A DNA stretch of 64,000 bases from Spirochaetia bacterium. GTDB taxonomy: Bacteria > Spirochaetota > Spirochaetia > UBA9216. Made by a program: the position numbers and the translations under genes. The notes beneath the pieces were generated by a model. It saw only the letters and a program-made list of their open reading frames with translations, did no database searches and had not been told where the DNA came from. Location: the NCBI GenBank assembly GCA_965140585.1, contig OZ223269.1, forward strand, positions 160,001 through 224,000, in the 5' to 3' direction. Below are positions 15,348 through 22,468 of this stretch, one piece after another (within the stretch, counting starts at the first letter, position 1; each line of letters starts with the position of its first letter).

Positions 15348-17429
15348 TTACGTCCAGTTTTTGGATTCAAGAGGTATGGGTTTTGATATCTCGTAACCCT
15401 GGGCGTAGTCTACCTTCAATTCACTAAGCATGTTGATTATTGTTGAATTGCTTACGAATTCGGCGATTGTTTTCTTTCCCATGATATGGCCCATAGTGTT
15501 AATAGCCTCAACCATCGCTTTGTTTACACTGTCCTCATGCATATTCCGTACAAATACACCGTCAATTTTAAGATAATCGACCGGAAGGTTTTTAAGGTAA
15601 TTAAACGAAGAGAAACCGCTGCCGAAATCATCGAGGGCGAACGAACAGCCTGTCTGCTTTAAATCGTTTATGAACTCATGGGCTGAAGACATGTTGCTGA
15701 TGGTGGCTGTTTCGGTTATTTCGAAACAGAAATGCTTCGGAGAAATTCCTGAATCCCTGAACTGTTCCTTAATAAAACCAAGTATGCTGTCGTCAGTCAT
15801 GGACTGTGCTGAAAGGTTTACAGAAAACTGCTGAATATGTTTCAGCCTTCCATGCTTCATGTTTTCACGGAACAGGCGAATAGATTCGGAAATTACCCAT
15901 CTGTCAATCTGGGCCATCATGTTATAACGTTCCGCAGCAGGAATAAAATCAGCCGGCATTACAATCTGGCCTTCCTCATTTCTCATTCTGATAAGAATTT
16001 CACCCTTGCTGGGGGTATCTGGACTGCTGTTAAGAGGTCTGATTTCCTGGATGTACAGTTCAAATCTGTTCTTATCAAGAGCCCTTGAGAGTTTAGATAC
16101 CCATTCCATTTCTCCACGGCGCTTCTGAAACTGGTTCTCCATCTCGTTATAGATTTTGATCCTGTTTCCGCCTTCTTCCTTGGCTACAAAACAGGCATCG
16201 TCCACTTCCGCGAGCAGTACTGAGACTGATTTTTCCGTACCTTCAAGAAAAGCTATTCCAATGCTTGTGTCATACGGAAAAACCTTTTCTTCCCATTCGA
16301 GTCTAAGAGTGTGAAATTGATTATGAAGCATCGTTGCTTTTGCGACAATGTCATCTCTATCGGAACCGTTAAGGATAAGTCCGAACTGGTCTCCTCCAAG
16401 TCTTGCGCTATGCTCAGAGGTTTCAGAATGTTCTTTTATGATGTTGGCAACATTGACCAGCATGGTATCAGCGGTAGTATGTCCGCAGGTATCATTGATT
16501 ATTTTAAACCTGTCCATGTCAATGAAAAGAAGGGCATTTGCCTCCTGCATTGATTCACTTTCGGTGAGCAATGATTCCAGTTTAAGTGAAAAACTGTCTC
16601 TGTTGGAAAGCCCTGTCAGGTTGTCATGACTTGTGTGATAGGCTATGGCCTCGGAAAGCTTCTTTACTGTAGTCATATCCCTGATCGCAAGTACCAGCCC
16701 TTCAAAATTGCCGGGTTTGTCCATGATTGCTGCAAGGCTGCCTTCCACCTGAAGTTTTTCACCGTGATTGTTTGAAAGATAGCAGTTTTTAAAGGTAAAG
16801 GGTCGTCTGCGGATGATCATCTCGTCACTTTCTGGAAGGTTTACAACAGGACTGTCCGACTGATTCATATCCTCAAGCAGAATGATCTCATTCAGGCTTT
16901 TTCCGATAACATACTTCTCTTCCCATCCGGTAATCTTCTCGGCCACAGGGTTGATAAGTATGATGCTGTTTTCCTTGTCGGTCGCGATGATCCCATCGGC
17001 TATTGAATGAAGAATGGCTGTAGACCATCTCTGCTGCTTTTTAAGTTCCTGATCGACACGGTACTTGTATAGAGCAATATCGATGGTTGTGTAAAGTTCT
17101 TTATCCTTAAAAGGCTTAAGTATATAGCCCGAGGGTTCTGCAATTTTTGCACGCTCTATAATCTCCTGATTGGAAAACGCTGTAAGAAAAATTACAGGAA
17201 TAGCAAACCGGGTTTTTATGATCTTTGCAGTTTCAATACCGTCAATATCTCCAATAATATGAATATCCATCAGGATGATATCAGGAGAATGACGTTCGAC
17301 CATATCTATGGCATGATCAGCTGTTGCGGAAATGGCAACAACGGTATAACCATAACGTTCCAGTCGGCGCTGCAAATCAATAGCAATTATTCTTTCGTCT
17401 TCGACGATGAGTATCTTCTCACCTTTCAT
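15348..17429 (-). CDS. REC-PAS-GGDEF-EAL c-di-GMP signalling protein
   Basis: REC (IVEDE, LMDI, KPF), PAS, GGDQF, EAL domain with EIL, FEITET, LDDFGSG, KIDG, QGY. Confidence 0.9.
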   Translation of the reverse strand: MKGEKILIVEDERIIAIDLQRRLERYGYTVVAISATADHAIDMVERHSPDIILMDIHIIGDIDGIETAKIIKTRFAIPVIFLTAFSNQEIIERAKIAEPSGYILKPFKDKELYTTIDIALYKYRVDQELKKQQRWSTAILHSIADGIIATDKENSIILINPVAEKITGWEEKYVIGKSLNEIILLEDMNQSDSPVVNLPESDEMIIRRRPFTFKNCYLSNNHGEKLQVEGSLAAIMDKPGNFEGLVLAIRDMTTVKKLSEAIAYHTSHDNLTGLSNRDSFSLKLESLLTESESMQEANALLFIDMDRFKIINDTCGHTTADTMLVNVANIIKEHSETSEHSARLGGDQFGLILNGSDRDDIVAKATMLHNQFHTLRLEWEEKVFPYDTSIGIAFLEGTEKSVSVLLAEVDDACFVAKEEGGNRIKIYNEMENQFQKRRGEMEWVSKLSRALDKNRFELYIQEIRPLNSSPDTPSKGEILIRMRNEEGQIVMPADFIPAAERYNMMAQIDRWVISESIRLFRENMKHGRLKHIQQFSVNLSAQSMTDDSILGFIKEQFRDSGISPKHFCFEITETATISNMSSAHEFINDLKQTGCSFALDDFGSGFSSFNYLKNLPVDYLKIDGVFVRNMHEDSVNKAMVEAINTMGHIMGKKTIAEFVSNSTIINMLSELKVDYAQGYEISKPIPLESKNWT

Positions 17430-17497: not shown

Positions 17498-18640
17498 ATG
17501 GCCAGTCTATTTTTTGAAAACCCTATTCCCCAAACCGACCTTACAAAGCGTCTTCATGCCAGAGATCGAGATCTTCGATCGGCATATTTCCGTGATACCA
17601 CGGCAATTATTCACAGTTATCCATTCAGAAGGCTGAAGCACAAAACCCAGGTATTCTTTTCTCCCCATAACGATCATATATGTACCCGAATAGAGCATGT
17701 GATGCATGTAGCCTCGGTTGCTGCAACAATCTGCAGAGCTCTGGATCTTGATGCTGATCTTGCCTGGGCAATCGGTCTTGGGCATGATCTTGGACATACT
17801 CCCTTCGGGCATGTCGGAGAGACCATTCTTTCAGATCTGATGAAGGAGAAAGGCGGATTCAAGCATGAGATATATTCACTGCGGGTTGTAGACCATCTTG
17901 CAGGTTATGGAAAGGGCCTGAACCTTACCTACGCGGTCAGAGACGGCATTTTAAACCACTGCGGTGAAAAATTCGAGCAGTCAATGGTTCCTGATTTTAC
18001 TGTCAAAAATCTGTCAGAGATTAAAACCCGTGAGAATTATCCTGCATCCTGGGAAGGCGTTGTGGTGCGTATGTCGGATAAGATAGCCTATATGGGCCGT
18101 GATCTTGAAGATGCAATGCACCTGAAGATTATTAGCCAGGAAGATATTCCTGAAGATGTTACAAGGGTGCTCGGCAACAGCAACAGCGAGATTATCAACT
18201 CGATGGTAAATGATCTTATTGCTACTTCTCTGGAAACCGGCCGGATCGGCTTTTCTGATGACATTTTCAAGGCAATGCTTGTTCTTGTCGAGTTCAACTA
18301 CCGCAGAATCTATAAGAATCCTCTGCTTTCCACATATCACGGTTACTTTGAAAGGATGCTGAAGGTCCTGTTTGAATATCTGACTGACCTGTTCGAGAAC
18401 GGCGGTGAGAATACAGGGCATTACCGTTCTGAAAATAATTTTCTGGCAGCCCGATTCGGAGATTACTACCGGAAGATGAAAGACTTCTATCAGGAAGTCG
18501 ATGGTAATATGGATATGATTGTCTATGATTATATAGCCGGAATGTCAGATGATTATGCCATCAGCTGTGTGAATGAAATAATGGTGCCCAGGAAGTTTGA
18601 ATATCAGTTCACAGAGTTTCTTCTGCAGGAAGACTATTAG
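17498..18640 (+). CDS. dgt: Deoxyguanosinetriphosphate triphosphohydrolase-like HD protein
   Basis: FRRLKHKTQV, TRIEH, GHDLGHTPFGHVGE, SDKIAY, DYIAGMSD. Confidence 0.88.
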   Translation: MASLFFENPIPQTDLTKRLHARDRDLRSAYFRDTTAIIHSYPFRRLKHKTQVFFSPHNDHICTRIEHVMHVASVAATICRALDLDADLAWAIGLGHDLGHTPFGHVGETILSDLMKEKGGFKHEIYSLRVVDHLAGYGKGLNLTYAVRDGILNHCGEKFEQSMVPDFTVKNLSEIKTRENYPASWEGVVVRMSDKIAYMGRDLEDAMHLKIISQEDIPEDVTRVLGNSNSEIINSMVNDLIATSLETGRIGFSDDIFKAMLVLVEFNYRRIYKNPLLSTYHGYFERMLKVLFEYLTDLFENGGENTGHYRSENNFLAARFGDYYRKMKDFYQEVDGNMDMIVYDYIAGMSDDYAISCVNEIMVPRKFEYQFTEFLLQEDY

Positions 18641-19338
18641 TTGTTGTATTTTACCATGCAGTTGATTCCTGCCTCTTCTACGATAGTTTTCAGCCGGTCA
18701 AGATATACAGCATCTGCAGCATTCAGCCTGGAATAGTCCGGATCAAGAGTGTTCCCGGGTCTGAACCCCTGAATTACAAAATTCTCCTCACCGTTAAGAA
18801 GTTTTACAATTTCTCTGATATCGTCTGAAGTGACAAGCTCCGGTACTGCTGTGGTTCTGAAGTGATGGGCAATTCCGGAGTTTTTGATTATTCCGATTGA
18901 TTCAAGAATCCTGTCCTTGATCTCATTCCTGCTGCCCGTATAGCCCATAACAGCATAGCGTGACGGGGCTGTTTTGATATCCATGGCAATGTAGTCGGCC
19001 TTAAGTGTTTTAAGCTTGTCAGGAAGTGCCCCGTTTGTATCCACTTTAACCTTGTAGCCGAGGGAATGCAGTTCCTCTATCATTTCATCAAGATCGCTGT
19101 GAATCATCGGTTCCCCGCCTGATATACAGACGCCTCCGAGAAGTCCCTGGCGTTTTTTAAGGTATTCGATTATTTCAGACCAGGTAAGAAGGCCTTCTCT
19201 GTCATCTCCGCAGACAAGGCCCGGATTATGACAGTAGGGGCATCTCATATTGCATCCCCGGGTAAAGACTGTTGCTGCAACCTTTCCCGGGTAATCAAGA
19301 AGTGTAGTCCGGGTAAGCCCGAACAGTTTTTCCTGCAT
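18637..19338 (-). CDS. nrdG: Anaerobic ribonucleotide reductase activating enzyme (radical SAM)
   Basis: LLDYPG, GCNMRCPYCHN, SGGEP, KVDTNG; last gene of the nrd operon. Confidence 0.93.
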   Translation of the reverse strand: MQEKLFGLTRTTLLDYPGKVAATVFTRGCNMRCPYCHNPGLVCGDDREGLLTWSEIIEYLKKRQGLLGGVCISGGEPMIHSDLDEMIEELHSLGYKVKVDTNGALPDKLKTLKADYIAMDIKTAPSRYAVMGYTGSRNEIKDRILESIGIIKNSGIAHHFRTTAVPELVTSDDIREIVKLLNGEENFVIQGFRPGNTLDPDYSRLNAADAVYLDRLKTIVEEAGINCMVKYNN

Positions 19339-19341
19339 TTT

Positions 19342-19869
19342 TTAAACTAAAACTTCAGTAAAAAGTGACTTCAGTGAATCAACACTTGTGGCTCTGTAGA
19401 GCTCATTTCCGGATTCATCGATGAAGACAACAGTAGGTGATACAAAAATTCTGTATTTTCCTGCCAGTTCAAATCCTGATTTTTCATCTACATTAACTGT
19501 TTTTCCATTCATGTAGAAACCCTCAAGCCAGTTCTTTACGGGCGGACAGTTGGGACATGTAGTCCTGTAAAAGTAAATATATGAAGAAGGCTGAACTGAT
19601 GTTTCCTGCTGAAGGAAAGATGCGGGGCTCTGATCAGTGTATGTAGCAGTGCTGATAGCGGTTCCGGCGGCTTCTCTCACAGAAGGCTTGTCGGGCTGGG
19701 AAAAAAGTGTTCTGTGGTTGTACTCGTCTCTTTTACCCTTGTTCCAGTTCCTTACAGACCGGTAGTACCCTACAATCCTGGTATACACTTCGGTTTCGGT
19801 TCCCTTAACGGTCTGAAGCTTGTCCTTCAGTGTTCTGATTTCTTTTTCAATAGTCTCAATAGTTTTCAT
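19342..19869 (-). CDS. Stand-alone NrdD glycyl-radical domain fused to a thioredoxin/glutaredoxin-like domain (CPNC), 175 aa
   Basis: TEVYTRIVGYYRSVRNWNKGKRDEY glycyl-radical motif; C-terminal YFYRTTCPNC...VSPTVVF Trx fold; own RBS GGGAG before ATG 19869. Confidence 0.9.
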   Translation of the reverse strand: MKTIETIEKEIRTLKDKLQTVKGTETEVYTRIVGYYRSVRNWNKGKRDEYNHRTLFSQPDKPSVREAAGTAISTATYTDQSPASFLQQETSVQPSSYIYFYRTTCPNCPPVKNWLEGFYMNGKTVNVDEKSGFELAGKYRIFVSPTVVFIDESGNELYRATSVDSLKSLFTEVLV

Positions 19870-19882
19870 AATGTTCTCCCAG

Positions 19883-21997
19883 TTATCTGTTTTCTGCTCC
19901 CAAGAGCGATGATTTTTCTTTCTCAAGCTGTTCAATATTCTTTGCAATTTCCGCTTTTTCCTCATCAGCGCATTTCGGACAGTTGAAATGTTCGCCGTTA
20001 AGGTAGCCGTGCTTCGGACATACCGAAAATGTCGGTGATATTGTGAAGTAGGGCAGGTGGTAGTTGCTTGCGATACCTCTCACAAGGTTCATGCATGATT
20101 CCCAGTCATCAATTGCTTCACCGAGGAATCCGTGGAAAACCGTTCCTCCGGTATACTTAATCTGAAGTTCATCTTGCAGATCGAGTGCTTCAAAGATGTC
20201 GGTTGTAAAATCGACCGGAAGCTGTGAAGAATTGGTGTAGTATGGGTCGTCTGTACCTGCAGTGATGATATCCGGGTATCTCTGCTTGTCATGTTTTGCA
20301 AGACGGTAGCTTGTACTTTCAGCCGGTGTAGCTTCGAGGTTGTAGAGATCGCCTGTTTTTTCCTGATAATCAGCAAGTCTGTCTCTCATGAAATCAAGGA
20401 CCTCAAGTGCAAACTCTTTGCCCTCGGTATCAAGAATATCCTTCCCCATGAAGTTAAGCAGACACTCGTTCATTCCGCAGATACCGATTGTTGAGAAATG
20501 GTTGTTAAGATGTGACAGATAACGCTTTGTATAGGGAAAGAGTCCCGAATCCATCAGTCTGTTTACAACTTTTCTTTTCATTGAAAGCGATTCCGCGGCA
20601 AGATCCATAAGGTGGGCAAGTCTGCTGAAGAAATCGTTTCTTGAATTGGAGAGATATCCTATTTTCGGCAGGTTAATAGTGACAACACCTATCGATCCTG
20701 TGAACTCGTCTGAGCCGAAAAGGCCGCCGCCTCTTTTTCGAAGTTCTCTCTTGTCAAGCTGAAGTCTGCAGCACATTGAACGTACATCACCGGGGTTGAG
20801 ATCTGAATTGATAAAATTCTGAAAGTAGGGCGTACCGTATTTTGCAGTCATTTCAAACAGAAGTTTGGCATTAGGTGATGTCCAGTTGAAATTCTTTGTT
20901 ATGTTGTACGTAGGAATGGGGTATTGGAATCCGCGTCCGTTTGCATCACCGGTAATCATAAGCTCAATGAATGCCTTGTTGATTATATCCATTTCATCCT
21001 GACAGTCGCCGTAGGTGAAATCCATTTCCTTTCCGCCTACGATTGCAGGTTTATCCTTCAGATCGTCGGGTACTATCCAGTCGAGTGTGATGTTTGTAAA
21101 AGGTGCCTGACTTCCCCATCTTGAAGGTGTATTAACTCCGAAGATAAAGCTCTGAAGACCCTGTTTTACTTCCTTGTGTGACAGCTCATCAGCCTTTACA
21201 AAGGGCGCAAGATATGTGTCGAAGCTTGAAAGTGCCTGAGCTCCGGCCCATTCGTTCTGCATGATTCCGAGGAAATTTACTATCTGCTGAATCAGTGTTG
21301 AAAGGTGGGCTGCCGGCAGCGATGTGATCTTGTCCGGTACTCCGCCGAGTCCTTCCTGTATAAGCTGTCTGAGCGACCATCCGGCACAGTAGCCTGAAAA
21401 CATGGATAAATCATGAATATGAAAATCCGCGTTTCTGTGTGCTTCGGCTACTTCTTCCCTGTAGATATTTTTCAGCCAGTAGTTTGCTGTAATTGTACCG
21501 GAGTTATGCAGAATCAGGCCTCCCAGTGAGAAGTTGACGTTTGCGTTTTCATTTACACGCCAGTCAGACTGCTGCAGGTAGCCGTCCATGGTGTTGTTGA
21601 TGTCGAGCATGAGTTTCCTGGTGTCACGGATAACTTCATGTCTGGCACGATAGATTATGTATGCCTTTGCAATATCAACCTGTCCTGATTCAACAAGAAT
21701 GTGCTCTACTATATCCTGAATCTCTTCGATTGCAGGCGCAGAATTTGGGTGTCGTCCCTTCATGAATGATTTTAGCGCTGTTTCAACCCGGCAGGTCAGA
21801 TCTTCCACCAACTCAGGATTTTCAGATTCCTGAGCTGCAGAGACAGCCCTTCCGATTGCGCTTGCGATTTTCCATCTGTCATACTGTTCAATTTTTCCGT
21901 CGCGTTTGACTATTCGCCTTATTACCGCTTCAATTGCAGGCTTGTGTTCAACGCCAAGGAAATCTTTCCAGTCGTTTTCATTTTTACTGAAATCCAA
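19883..21997 (-). CDS. nrdD: Class III ribonucleoside-triphosphate reductase catalytic subunit (ATP cone, barrel, Zn site; lacks C-terminal glycyl-radical motif)
   Basis: IVKRDG ATP cone, HIHDL, GYCAGW, RSMCCRL, EATPAES, YTGGT, CPKH...CPKC; TTG start with G-rich RBS. Confidence 0.95.
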   Translation of the reverse strand: MDFSKNENDWKDFLGVEHKPAIEAVIRRIVKRDGKIEQYDRWKIASAIGRAVSAAQESENPELVEDLTCRVETALKSFMKGRHPNSAPAIEEIQDIVEHILVESGQVDIAKAYIIYRARHEVIRDTRKLMLDINNTMDGYLQQSDWRVNENANVNFSLGGLILHNSGTITANYWLKNIYREEVAEAHRNADFHIHDLSMFSGYCAGWSLRQLIQEGLGGVPDKITSLPAAHLSTLIQQIVNFLGIMQNEWAGAQALSSFDTYLAPFVKADELSHKEVKQGLQSFIFGVNTPSRWGSQAPFTNITLDWIVPDDLKDKPAIVGGKEMDFTYGDCQDEMDIINKAFIELMITGDANGRGFQYPIPTYNITKNFNWTSPNAKLLFEMTAKYGTPYFQNFINSDLNPGDVRSMCCRLQLDKRELRKRGGGLFGSDEFTGSIGVVTINLPKIGYLSNSRNDFFSRLAHLMDLAAESLSMKRKVVNRLMDSGLFPYTKRYLSHLNNHFSTIGICGMNECLLNFMGKDILDTEGKEFALEVLDFMRDRLADYQEKTGDLYNLEATPAESTSYRLAKHDKQRYPDIITAGTDDPYYTNSSQLPVDFTTDIFEALDLQDELQIKYTGGTVFHGFLGEAIDDWESCMNLVRGIASNYHLPYFTISPTFSVCPKHGYLNGEHFNCPKCADEEKAEIAKNIEQLEKEKSSLLGAENR

Positions 21998-22012: not shown

Positions 22013-22468
22013 TTAGAATTTTAACTTTTTAATTTCATCGACAAACTGCTGAACATCGGCATATTTCCGGTACACTGATGCAAACCTTACATAGGCAACG
22101 CTGTCTATATTGTAGAGTTTTTCCAGTGCAAGTTCTCCGAGTGCTTCAGCTGAAACCTCATGGCTGCTTTTACCCAGCATATAGGCTTCGTCTTCTATCG
22201 ATGTCAGTATTTCTGCAACAGTTTCTGCAGGAACAGGACGTTTTTCCAGAGAGCGTTCCAGACCTCTTGCTATCTTGCTGATATCAAAGGGTTCCCTGAC
22301 TCCGCTCCTTTTAATAACCATCAGCGGCTGTTCCTCGATCCGTTCGTAGGAGGTGAACCTGTATGAACATGACAGACACTCGCGCCTTCTTCGGATTGAA
22401 TTGGCCGTTGCTGACTGTCTTGATTCCAGAACTCTGTCGTTATCTTCTCCGCATCGCGGACATCTCAT
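22013..22468 (-). CDS. nrdR: Transcriptional repressor NrdR
   Basis: MRCPRC, IRRRRECLSCSYRFTSYE, ATP cone, VAYVRFASVY. Confidence 0.96.
   Translation of the reverse strand: MRCPRCGEDNDRVLESRQSATANSIRRRRECLSCSYRFTSYERIEEQPLMVIKRSGVREPFDISKIARGLERSLEKRPVPAETVAEILTSIEDEAYMLGKSSHEVSAEALGELALEKLYNIDSVAYVRFASVYRKYADVQQFVDEIKKLKF

Follow-up and report, generated by a model that had tools for sequence, protein, structure and literature searches.

Many strict anaerobes, Treponema of the gut, rumen and mouth among them, can make DNA precursors de novo only by class III ribonucleotide reductase (RNR). The locus treated here raises the question of how such an enzyme obtains its radical, and its electrons, when the large chain ends before the glycyl-radical loop. 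It lies in a stretch of 64,000 nucleotides from a Spirochaetia bacterium (assembly GCA_965140585.1, contig OZ223269.1, positions 160,001 to 224,000), which is called the window below and in which positions are counted from its first letter. The operon is predicted to encode a two-subunit class III RNR, where a small subunit provides a barrel subunit with the glycyl-radical loop in trans. The same small chain carries a thioredoxin-fold domain with a CPNC motif, and this domain is probably a dedicated, tethered disulfide reductant of the RNR active site, a reading to which a probability of about 0.6 is assigned.

A class III ribonucleotide reductase in two chains

The operon consists of four genes on the minus strand, in the order nrdR, nrdD, small gene and nrdG, and this order was found again in 20 of 22 related loci. 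The genes, and the parts of them that bear on the division of the enzyme, are as follows (lengths and residue numbers in amino acids, aa; pLDDT, predicted local distance difference test score).

22013..22468, minus strand: nrdR, the first gene of the operon, 151 aa; Pfam Zn_ribbon_NrdR (9.9e-18) and ATP-cone (1.8e-18)
19883..21997, minus strand: class III RNR large subunit (NrdD), 704 aa, TTG start; Pfam NRDD, NCBIfam NF006126
19970..20020, minus strand: zinc site of the large subunit, C660-x2-H663 ... C673-x2-C676; CxxH...CxxC in 119 of 119 homologues
19886..19969, minus strand: C-terminal tail of the large subunit, 28 aa (ADEEKAEIAKNIEQLEKEK...), missing from unsplit relatives
19342..19869, minus strand: small subunit, 175 aa and stop; helix, glycyl-radical loop, linker and redoxin domain
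19810..19860, minus strand: N-terminal amphipathic helix of the small subunit, aa 4-20; helix in the model, pLDDT about 84
19702..19803, minus strand: glycyl-radical domain, aa 23-56, with RIVGYYR; Gly34 at 19768-19770
19585..19701, minus strand: disordered linker, aa 57-95; pLDDT 41-57, about 42
19357..19584, minus strand: thioredoxin-fold domain, aa 96-171; CPNC at 19546-19557, Pro145 at 19435-19437
18637..19338, minus strand: nrdG, activase, 233 aa; TIGR02495 NrdG2 (178 bits, cut-off 131), Pfam Radical_SAM

The 704-aa chain matches Pfam NRDD (PF13597) at E 6e-178, with 1-536 of the 562 profile positions covered. Its score with NCBIfam NF006126, for which the cut-off is 548, is 1105 bits over profile positions 3-662 of 684. 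An ATP-cone occupies aa 28-121. The chain ends shortly past its zinc site and lacks the glycyl-radical domain that an NrdD is expected to have on the same polypeptide. Nor was a real glycyl loop found in any of 119 close homologues of the large subunit, where the lone match to a regular expression (P0197) proved to be the RVHGY of a zinc site. This is the sole NrdD of the genome; a second RNR catalytic gene (PF02867) is found elsewhere in it.

The missing end is filled by the small chain, which matches positions 532-562 of the 562 in Pfam NRDD at E 9.7e-8, above the cut-off. With NCBIfam at E≤0.01 it matches NrdD models only, four in number. The structure of the small subunit was modelled with AlphaFold2 on an alignment of 59 sequences, and in this model residues 29-38 form a β-hairpin with Gly34 at its tip, followed by a helix at 39-51. 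Gly34 is invariant in the alignment, and RIVGY is present in all of the 120 best homologues. An RVxGY-type loop next to a radical S-adenosylmethionine (SAM) activase is what marks a glycyl-radical protein; both are found here, and the loop is predicted to carry the radical. The linker that follows is 39 aa long in the window and rich in Ala, Thr, Ser and Gln, while in the family it has a median of 40 aa (range 8-141; 246 of 311 sequences measurable) and is rich in Ala, Glu, Ser, Pro and Thr.

When 1718 candidate proteins of 96-307 aa were searched with the small protein, 1684 proved to be homologues at E≤0.001. The sequence of the small gene lies within an open reading frame (ORF) spanning 19342-19965, and its true start is the ATG at 19869, giving 175 aa; small-subunit homologues are 155-196 aa long and start at the same Met. 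The TAA of the large subunit is found at 19883-19885, and the ATG of the small gene follows 13 nt later in a different frame with GGGAGAA in front of it, while the ATG of nrdG lies 3 nt past the small-gene stop. A frameshift or a sequencing error was considered as the origin of the split and rejected. The small gene has its own ATG and ribosome-binding site, the 1684 homologues are alike in length, the loop is missing from 119 of 119 large subunits and one genus has the two genes at unlinked sites; the split is therefore real.

At the junction, 23 of the 24 unsplit forms have 8 residues from the last zinc Cys to RIVGY, and the remaining one has 13. The split form has 28 extra residues past the zinc site and another 30 before the Gly motif, the latter being also the median in small forms (n=211). 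Hydrophobic residues recur with heptad spacing in both extra segments, and the one in the small subunit is a helix in the model. The large-subunit tails are conserved in kind among the 119 homologues. The tail is probably helical as well and would pair with the helix of the small subunit, so that the two chains would be zipped together. A natural protein of 572 aa (P0152), which lacks the redoxin, has zinc site, helix, GGG, helix and RIVGY in frame within one chain. It may stand midway between the unsplit and the split enzyme, or may have arisen by re-fusion.

A thioredoxin-fold domain tied to class III ribonucleotide reductase

No other part of the model is folded as well as the redoxin domain, with the topology β-α-β-α-β-β-α and pLDDT values of 86-94. 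C105 and C108 lie directly ahead of helix 108-116, as they do in redoxins, and C105, P106, N107, C108 and P145 are invariant in the 59-sequence alignment. Among the 120 best homologues the CxxC is CPNC in 117, CPKC in two and CSNC in one. When the modelled domain was compared with solved structures using Foldseek, 80 PDB matches were obtained at E≤0.001 with thioredoxins at the top. The highest target-normalised template modelling score, 0.71, was found for 9bxs_E, a chain of 86 residues from the 'pre-reduction' complex of Bacillus subtilis RNR, while the closest solved relative by sequence (phmmer) is the thioredoxin-like protein 2l57 (E 1.9e-4). The model thus displays the features by which a thioredoxin-fold dithiol oxidoreductase is recognised, namely the fold itself, a CxxC where helix 1 begins and a Pro at the cis-Pro position.

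An earlier note on the window, made from its letters alone, had described the small protein as a radical cartridge that is joined through about 40 aa of Ala, Thr, Ser and Gln to a thioredoxin-fold domain with CPNC at 19546-19557 and a cis-Pro loop. The motifs it listed (YFYRTTCPNCPPV, VNVD and SPTVVF) are all in the small protein, its linker corresponds to the stretch at residues 57-95 with a pLDDT of about 42, and the domain is modelled with a pLDDT of about 90 and has the fold matches just described. The Pro of the proposed loop is the invariant P145. The note had named a CxxC that varied among orthologues as grounds for giving up its proposal; the motif is present in 120 of 120. That a redoxin module and the glycyl-radical loop share one chain is likewise supported by the model and by motif conservation, and the combination of an NrdD C-terminus with a thioredoxin domain and no barrel, which the note proposed to look for, is represented by the 1684 homologues.

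The assignment to a family within the superfamily is less straightforward. In size and topology the domain resembles NrdH, and the NrdH family is absent from the NCBIfam matches at E≤10, where GRX_euk, TsoB and thioredoxin alone are found, all of them far under their cut-offs. Among 59 family members, Pfam Glutaredoxin is matched by 52, Thioredoxin_2 by 30 and Thioredoxin by 16 at E≤0.01. The domain is best described, as far as such profiles go, as an orphan subfamily within the thioredoxin superfamily.

It is found together with class III RNR in three arrangements. In the first it is fused to the small subunit of a split enzyme, as in the window. In the second it forms the C-terminus of single-chain NrdD-linker-redoxin proteins, of which 24 were collected (807-923 aa) and whose linker is similar in kind. 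The third was found in DPANN (Woesearchaeota-type) archaea (L056, L057 and L136), where a separate gene of 85 aa lies between an unsplit nrdD and nrdG. The NrdD of these archaea (L056, 2589-4955; also L057 and L136) is 788 aa long and has a zinc ribbon of the NrdR type fused ahead of its ATP-cone. The archaeal barrel contains AMCCRL and shares 52-54% identity with that of the spirochaete, and the gene is followed by that of a stand-alone CPKC redoxin and by nrdG.

Two stand-alone redoxins were used as queries in a locus search that covered the genomes of 185,579 species. The matches at E≤3e-17 comprise 25 loci, every one of them an nrd locus, and both nrdD and nrdG lie within 4-5 kb in 24 of the 25 (in L145 nrdD is cut by the contig end, and L154 has the small gene only). 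At the 86 weaker matches (77 and 9) no nrd genes were found. A scan of 1.84 billion representatives with the domain alone gave only 261 relatives at E≤0.001. Among the best 150 of these, 100 have a Gly motif upstream, while 25 are proteins of at most 110 aa without it, which are stand-alone genes or fragments. Given the three arrangements and the 25 nrd loci out of 25, the redoxin domain is tied to class III RNR, and the locus and domain scans are the strongest computational evidence that it works with this enzyme.

The probable reductant of the active site

The motifs of the large subunit that were considered in telling formate- from thioredoxin-dependent enzymes are found at the following positions.

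21380..21394, minus strand: GYCAG, aa 202-206, with the β-A cysteine C204; aligns with the β-A Cys region of Thermotoga maritima NrdD; in 117 of 119 homologues
20762..20779, minus strand: finger loop SMCCRL, aa 407-412, CC pair at 20768-20773; in 118 of 119 homologues
20333..20335, minus strand: E555 in NLEATPAES; column of T. maritima E495 (alignment to 4coi_A), invariant in the large-subunit alignment
20315..20329, minus strand: TPAES, aa 557-561

In an alignment to 8p23 and 4coi, C410 corresponds to the thiyl Cys and C409 is an extra Cys, while M408 is kept. The finger loop thus reads MCCR in the window, MGCR in the formate-type enzyme of Prevotella copri and SCCR in that of T. maritima. 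E555 falls in the column of T. maritima E495, where P. copri has a Leu. This column has been described as that of the proposed proton-donor Glu in formate-independent enzymes (Burnim et al., PMC9669993).

The earlier note had read GYCAG, the CC pair at 20768-20773 and TPAES as an active site of the thioredoxin type. The three motifs are present in the 704-aa chain as it had given them, and the extra Cys beside the thiyl Cys holds, since C409-C410 aligns with the SCCR of T. maritima. The Glu of TPAES (E560) had to be given up as a marker; it is uninformative, since TPAEG is found in P. copri, whose enzyme depends on formate. What remains of the assignment is carried by the CC loop, C204 and E555, and it is weakened by the retained Met408, with which the loop reads MCCR and not SCCR. 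Compared with the thioredoxin-only subclade (Burnim 2022), the window enzyme has the double Cys and the Glu but does not lack the Met. Since Met408 is present, the enzyme falls in the 'formate or thioredoxin' class.

The genome of the organism encodes a TrxB that scores 399 bits, above the cut-off, and several thioredoxins. No match to TIGR01255, the profile of pyruvate formate-lyase (PFL), reaches its cut-off of 994 bits, the highest score being 159. This weighs only weakly, since formate can also arise by other routes. Taken together, the genome seems to lean weakly to a reductant of the thioredoxin type. Glycyl-radical enzymes resembling PFL gave six matches of about 800 aa (C1:751113, C1:899647, C6:336125, C7:292457, C9:322257 and C9:301658), one with an internal TAG and none at the pyruvate formate-lyase cut-off. 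The organism is rich in glycyl-radical enzymes beyond the RNR.

By homology to solved NrdDs, the small chain would insert its Gly hairpin into the barrel, NrdG would install the radical on Gly34, and the radical would then move to C410. Nucleotide reduction would leave a disulfide between C204 and C409, which the tethered CPNC domain is proposed to reduce in each turnover. That the domain delivers electrons to this pair during turnover is suggested by the motif logic and by two precedents, the N. bacilliformis enzyme and the Grx::NrdB fusion treated below. The domain itself would be recharged by a cellular disulfide reductase, probably the TrxB of the genome. Two frames of 439-443 aa (C7:351589-352851 and C2:20185-21372), which combine a thioredoxin with a thioredoxin-reductase-like domain, score 306-321 bits, just below the TrxB cut-off, and are possible alternative rechargers. 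It would be no more than a logical consequence of cleavage by O2 at Gly34 that the reductant domain is freed as well. A complex prediction with barrel residues 135-704 and small-subunit residues 1-60, where redoxin residues 92-175 were scored, gave 0.00 in two runs whose controls were unfolded, so that the score weighs neither for nor against binding. The sequence permits the tethered-reductant mechanism without proving it.

Several observations weigh against the domain as the reductant of each turnover. The window protein is sub-threshold for both Pfam Thioredoxin_2 (18.7 bits, cut-off 27) and Glutaredoxin (17.3, cut-off 22.9), and it matches no NCBIfam redoxin model, the best reaching 13.9 bits against 87. 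The operon contains no disulfide reductase gene, and none for a ferredoxin:disulfide reductase either. Met408 is retained, and the published motif logic leaves formate chemistry possible. Many other families of the phylum have a split enzyme with nothing but the Gly loop as small subunit, and in one Treponema-like genus the small subunit is without redoxin in nine of nine genomes. Finally, the redoxin-linked NrdDs form one clade, and the constant presence of CC and Glu in them is therefore not independent evidence.

Some of these points may be turned into another explanation, namely that formate feeds turnover via Met408 and C204, while the tethered redoxin is a helper in activation or maintenance, which holds cysteines in the reduced form so that NrdG can install the radical or reinstall it after mild oxidation. 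Its targets may be the Cys residues of the zinc site, the finger-loop pair or the cysteines of NrdG. Thioredoxin is said to activate the formate-dependent Escherichia coli enzyme (PMC4390871), the domain sits on the very chain that NrdG acts upon, with nrdG 3 nt downstream, and besides the retained Met408 there is a genus that has lost the redoxin domain and kept the enzyme. Against such a helper stand E555 and C409, which are features of formate-independent enzymes and are invariant, and to a slight degree the want of a canonical PFL as formate source. A redoxin supplied covalently and in stoichiometric amounts would also seem excessive for occasional repair, and the explanation is considered unlikely. 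Less probable still is a domain that serves as an intermediate shuttle, comparable to the Cys tails of RNRs from classes I and II, and that would pass electrons from free thioredoxin or thioredoxin reductase to either active site of a dimer and would shield the radical too. The long flexible tether (median 40 aa, range 8-141) does recall the disordered, Cys-bearing C-termini described for class I and II enzymes (PMC9531940), and in the genus without the fold a CxC pair is found at the matching place in eight of nine tails. The ninth tail is without Cys, however, and there is no sign that a second redoxin is needed.

A redox-inactive module, used for structure or for docking as a handle for NrdG or for assembly, or else a decaying remnant, could be read from the sub-threshold Pfam scores and from the loss of the domain in some lineages. 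In sequences of only 41-66% identity the CxxC and the cis-Pro position are invariant, which would not be expected of a decaying remnant, and the domain is the part of the model that folds best; this explanation is given very little weight. The dedicated, tethered reductant of the active site is therefore kept as the preferred reading.

Spread of the family, origin of the split and known systems

The source-named homologues of the small protein are nearly all from spirochaetes (Treponema, Marispirochaeta and Spirochaeta), and the operon recurs in Treponema porcinum ATCC BAA-908 (L155). When the protein was searched against 401 sampled genomes of the phylum, with figures taken from about 150 of the 241 matches, some match was found in at least 199 genomes. 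The full protein with helix, Gly loop, linker and redoxin, in a frame of 160-245 aa, was present in at least 58, as a one-piece match in 51 (one with an internal stop) and as two pieces in one frame in seven. The unsplit NrdD-redoxin chain (821-846 aa) was found in at least five. Among the matches listed, many other families have minis of 55-90 aa that consist of the Gly loop only. The helix/Gly-loop/linker/redoxin architecture is a conserved family and not an artefact. In databases its members bear automatic names such as 'glutaredoxin', 'thiol reductase thioredoxin' and 'anaerobic ribonucleoside-triphosphate reductase', which conceal a conserved two-subunit enzyme.

Outside the spirochaetes, Atlas clusters of 131-142 aa with the Pfam domains NRDD and Glutaredoxin and up to 460 members are mostly from Bacillota. 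They suggest that small subunits with Gly loop and redoxin exist there too, but they are a lead only because their scores are 0.88, below 0.9. A locus search with one Bacillota cluster protein (P0365) gave no locus, and with a second (P0423) it gave only an unsplit Bacillota NrdD of 689 aa without redoxin (L176).

The split is wider than the redoxin fusion, since splits free of redoxin are found in many families. At five such loci (L041, L042, L045, L046 and L049, from genomes G026, G016, G011, G316 and G055) the large subunit ends in CPxHGY...CPYxHTEEELEKFG and is followed by an ORF of 60-75 aa with the Gly loop only (VEVYSRVVGYFRPVNQWNKGK) and then by nrdG. These differently split enzymes have neither the extra helices nor the redoxin. 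One genome (G203) encodes a split NrdD and four Gly-loop mini-ORFs (C4:225274-225366, C6:193072-193164, C40:1276-1362 and C20:1182-1268), three of which lie away from nrdD (loci L040 and L050; L040 is without nrd neighbour). They are possible spare radical subunits. The genus without redoxin (L038, L039 and L167-L173; also L051 and L052) has complete genomes of 2.7-2.9 Mb and small subunits of 82-98 aa. Eight of its nine tails carry a CxC(P)P pair (SGCDCPP) in place of CPNCPP. Two of its genomes have the large nrdD gene apart from the small gene and nrdG, at a distance of about 95 kb in G065 and of about 510 kb in G215.

The order of events was approached with a quick maximum-likelihood tree of 50 barrels, rooted at the midpoint, where P0168 is a very long branch. 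Of the 38 split forms, 36 fall in one weakly supported group (Shimodaira-Hasegawa-like approximate likelihood ratio test, SH-aLRT, 80), and the unsplit forms with redoxin lie outside it. A history where the fusion came first and the split later would fit this tree.

Two neighbours of the operon may be mentioned. On the plus strand, 17498-18640 encodes a phosphohydrolase of 380 aa with HD and HD_assoc domains, convergent with nrdG and overlapping its end by 4 nt. This pair of domains presumably marks an enzyme of the dGTPase or deoxynucleoside triphosphate (dNTP) triphosphohydrolase type, and the protein may be a partner of the RNR operon at the level of the dNTP pool. Beyond it, on the minus strand, lies an ORF of 693 aa (15348-17429) whose translation, judged by eye, starts like a response-regulator receiver and has LDDFGSG, a motif of the EAL type, at its end.

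On a more far-reaching reading, which is held to be somewhat less likely than not, the spirochaete enzyme is built in the manner of class I, with a long-lived barrel and a small, replaceable cartridge that holds both radical and reductant. If this is true, the enzyme would sustain dNTP synthesis without formate and without free thioredoxin at the active site, and O2 cleavage at Gly34 would be mended by swapping a chain of 175 aa instead of remaking an enzyme of about 900 aa. The small protein would then be the first example of a glycyl-radical subunit that is obligate and acts in trans, and 'spare part' logic would for the first time extend beyond PFL. The architecture is common in Treponema of the gut, rumen and mouth. 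The tethered redoxin offers a natural system for studying how a protein dithiol gains access to the Cys pair that lies buried in class III enzymes independent of formate, and the separate Gly-loop protein is a test case for exchangeable radical parts in glycyl-radical enzymes other than PFL.

The double-Cys finger loop, the β-A Cys and the Glu at the E495 position are shared with the enzymes of Neisseria bacilliformis and T. maritima, as is, presumably, the disulfide chemistry with a protein dithiol as reductant. This type is said to have been named NrdD2 by Wei et al. in 2014. The window enzyme differs in having MCCR where theirs is SCCR and in having its Gly domain on a separate polypeptide. 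The N. bacilliformis NrdD is reported to use thioredoxin (PMC9669993, PMC4390871); that thioredoxin is free, while the redoxin of the window is covalently tethered. A redoxin joined to the radical-carrying subunit of an RNR is known from Facklamia ignava Grx::ATP-cone::NrdB, whose fused Grx is reported to act as RNR reductant (PMC6187632). The F. ignava enzyme belongs to class I, with a radical subunit of the ferritin type and an N-terminal, glutathione-dependent Grx with CxxC, while that of the window belongs to class III and combines a glycyl-radical peptide with a C-terminal redoxin of an orphan subfamily. For NrdD, the text of the 2018 RefSeq survey mentions only an N-terminal grx::nrdD, in one Lachnospiraceae genome (PMC6187632). 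In the titles, abstract openings and some passages of the literature searched, neither a split NrdD nor a redoxin on a Gly-radical peptide was found, and a 2026 review of glycyl-radical enzymes leaves the class III RNRs aside (PMC13450708).

The domain is also comparable to NrdH of class Ib, both being CxxC proteins of about 80 aa with glutaredoxin topology that serve, or are proposed to serve, an RNR; NrdH is encoded next to its enzyme. An NrdH-like redoxin was reportedly found by Wei et al. in 2015 in the nrdD operon of Methanosarcina barkeri, and the DPANN locus L056 has the same layout. The window domain is set apart from NrdH by the lack of a match to the NrdH model, by its CPNC motif and by its fusion to a Gly-radical peptide. 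As a small protein whose glycyl-radical loop is inserted into a barrel in trans, the small subunit resembles the stand-alone GrcA/YfiD and T4 Y06I (PMC8683613). The same paper describes only two validated spare parts, both for PFL, and raises others as a question (Andorfer et al., 2021, PMC8683613). The loop of the window protein is, by NCBIfam, of the NrdD and not the PFL type and is followed by a redoxin, and the protein is therefore not a member of the GrcA family. GrcA rescues an O2-cleaved PFL that is normally a single chain (PMC8683613), whereas the window barrel never has a loop of its own; since this barrel is always loop-free, the small protein would be an obligate subunit of the enzyme.

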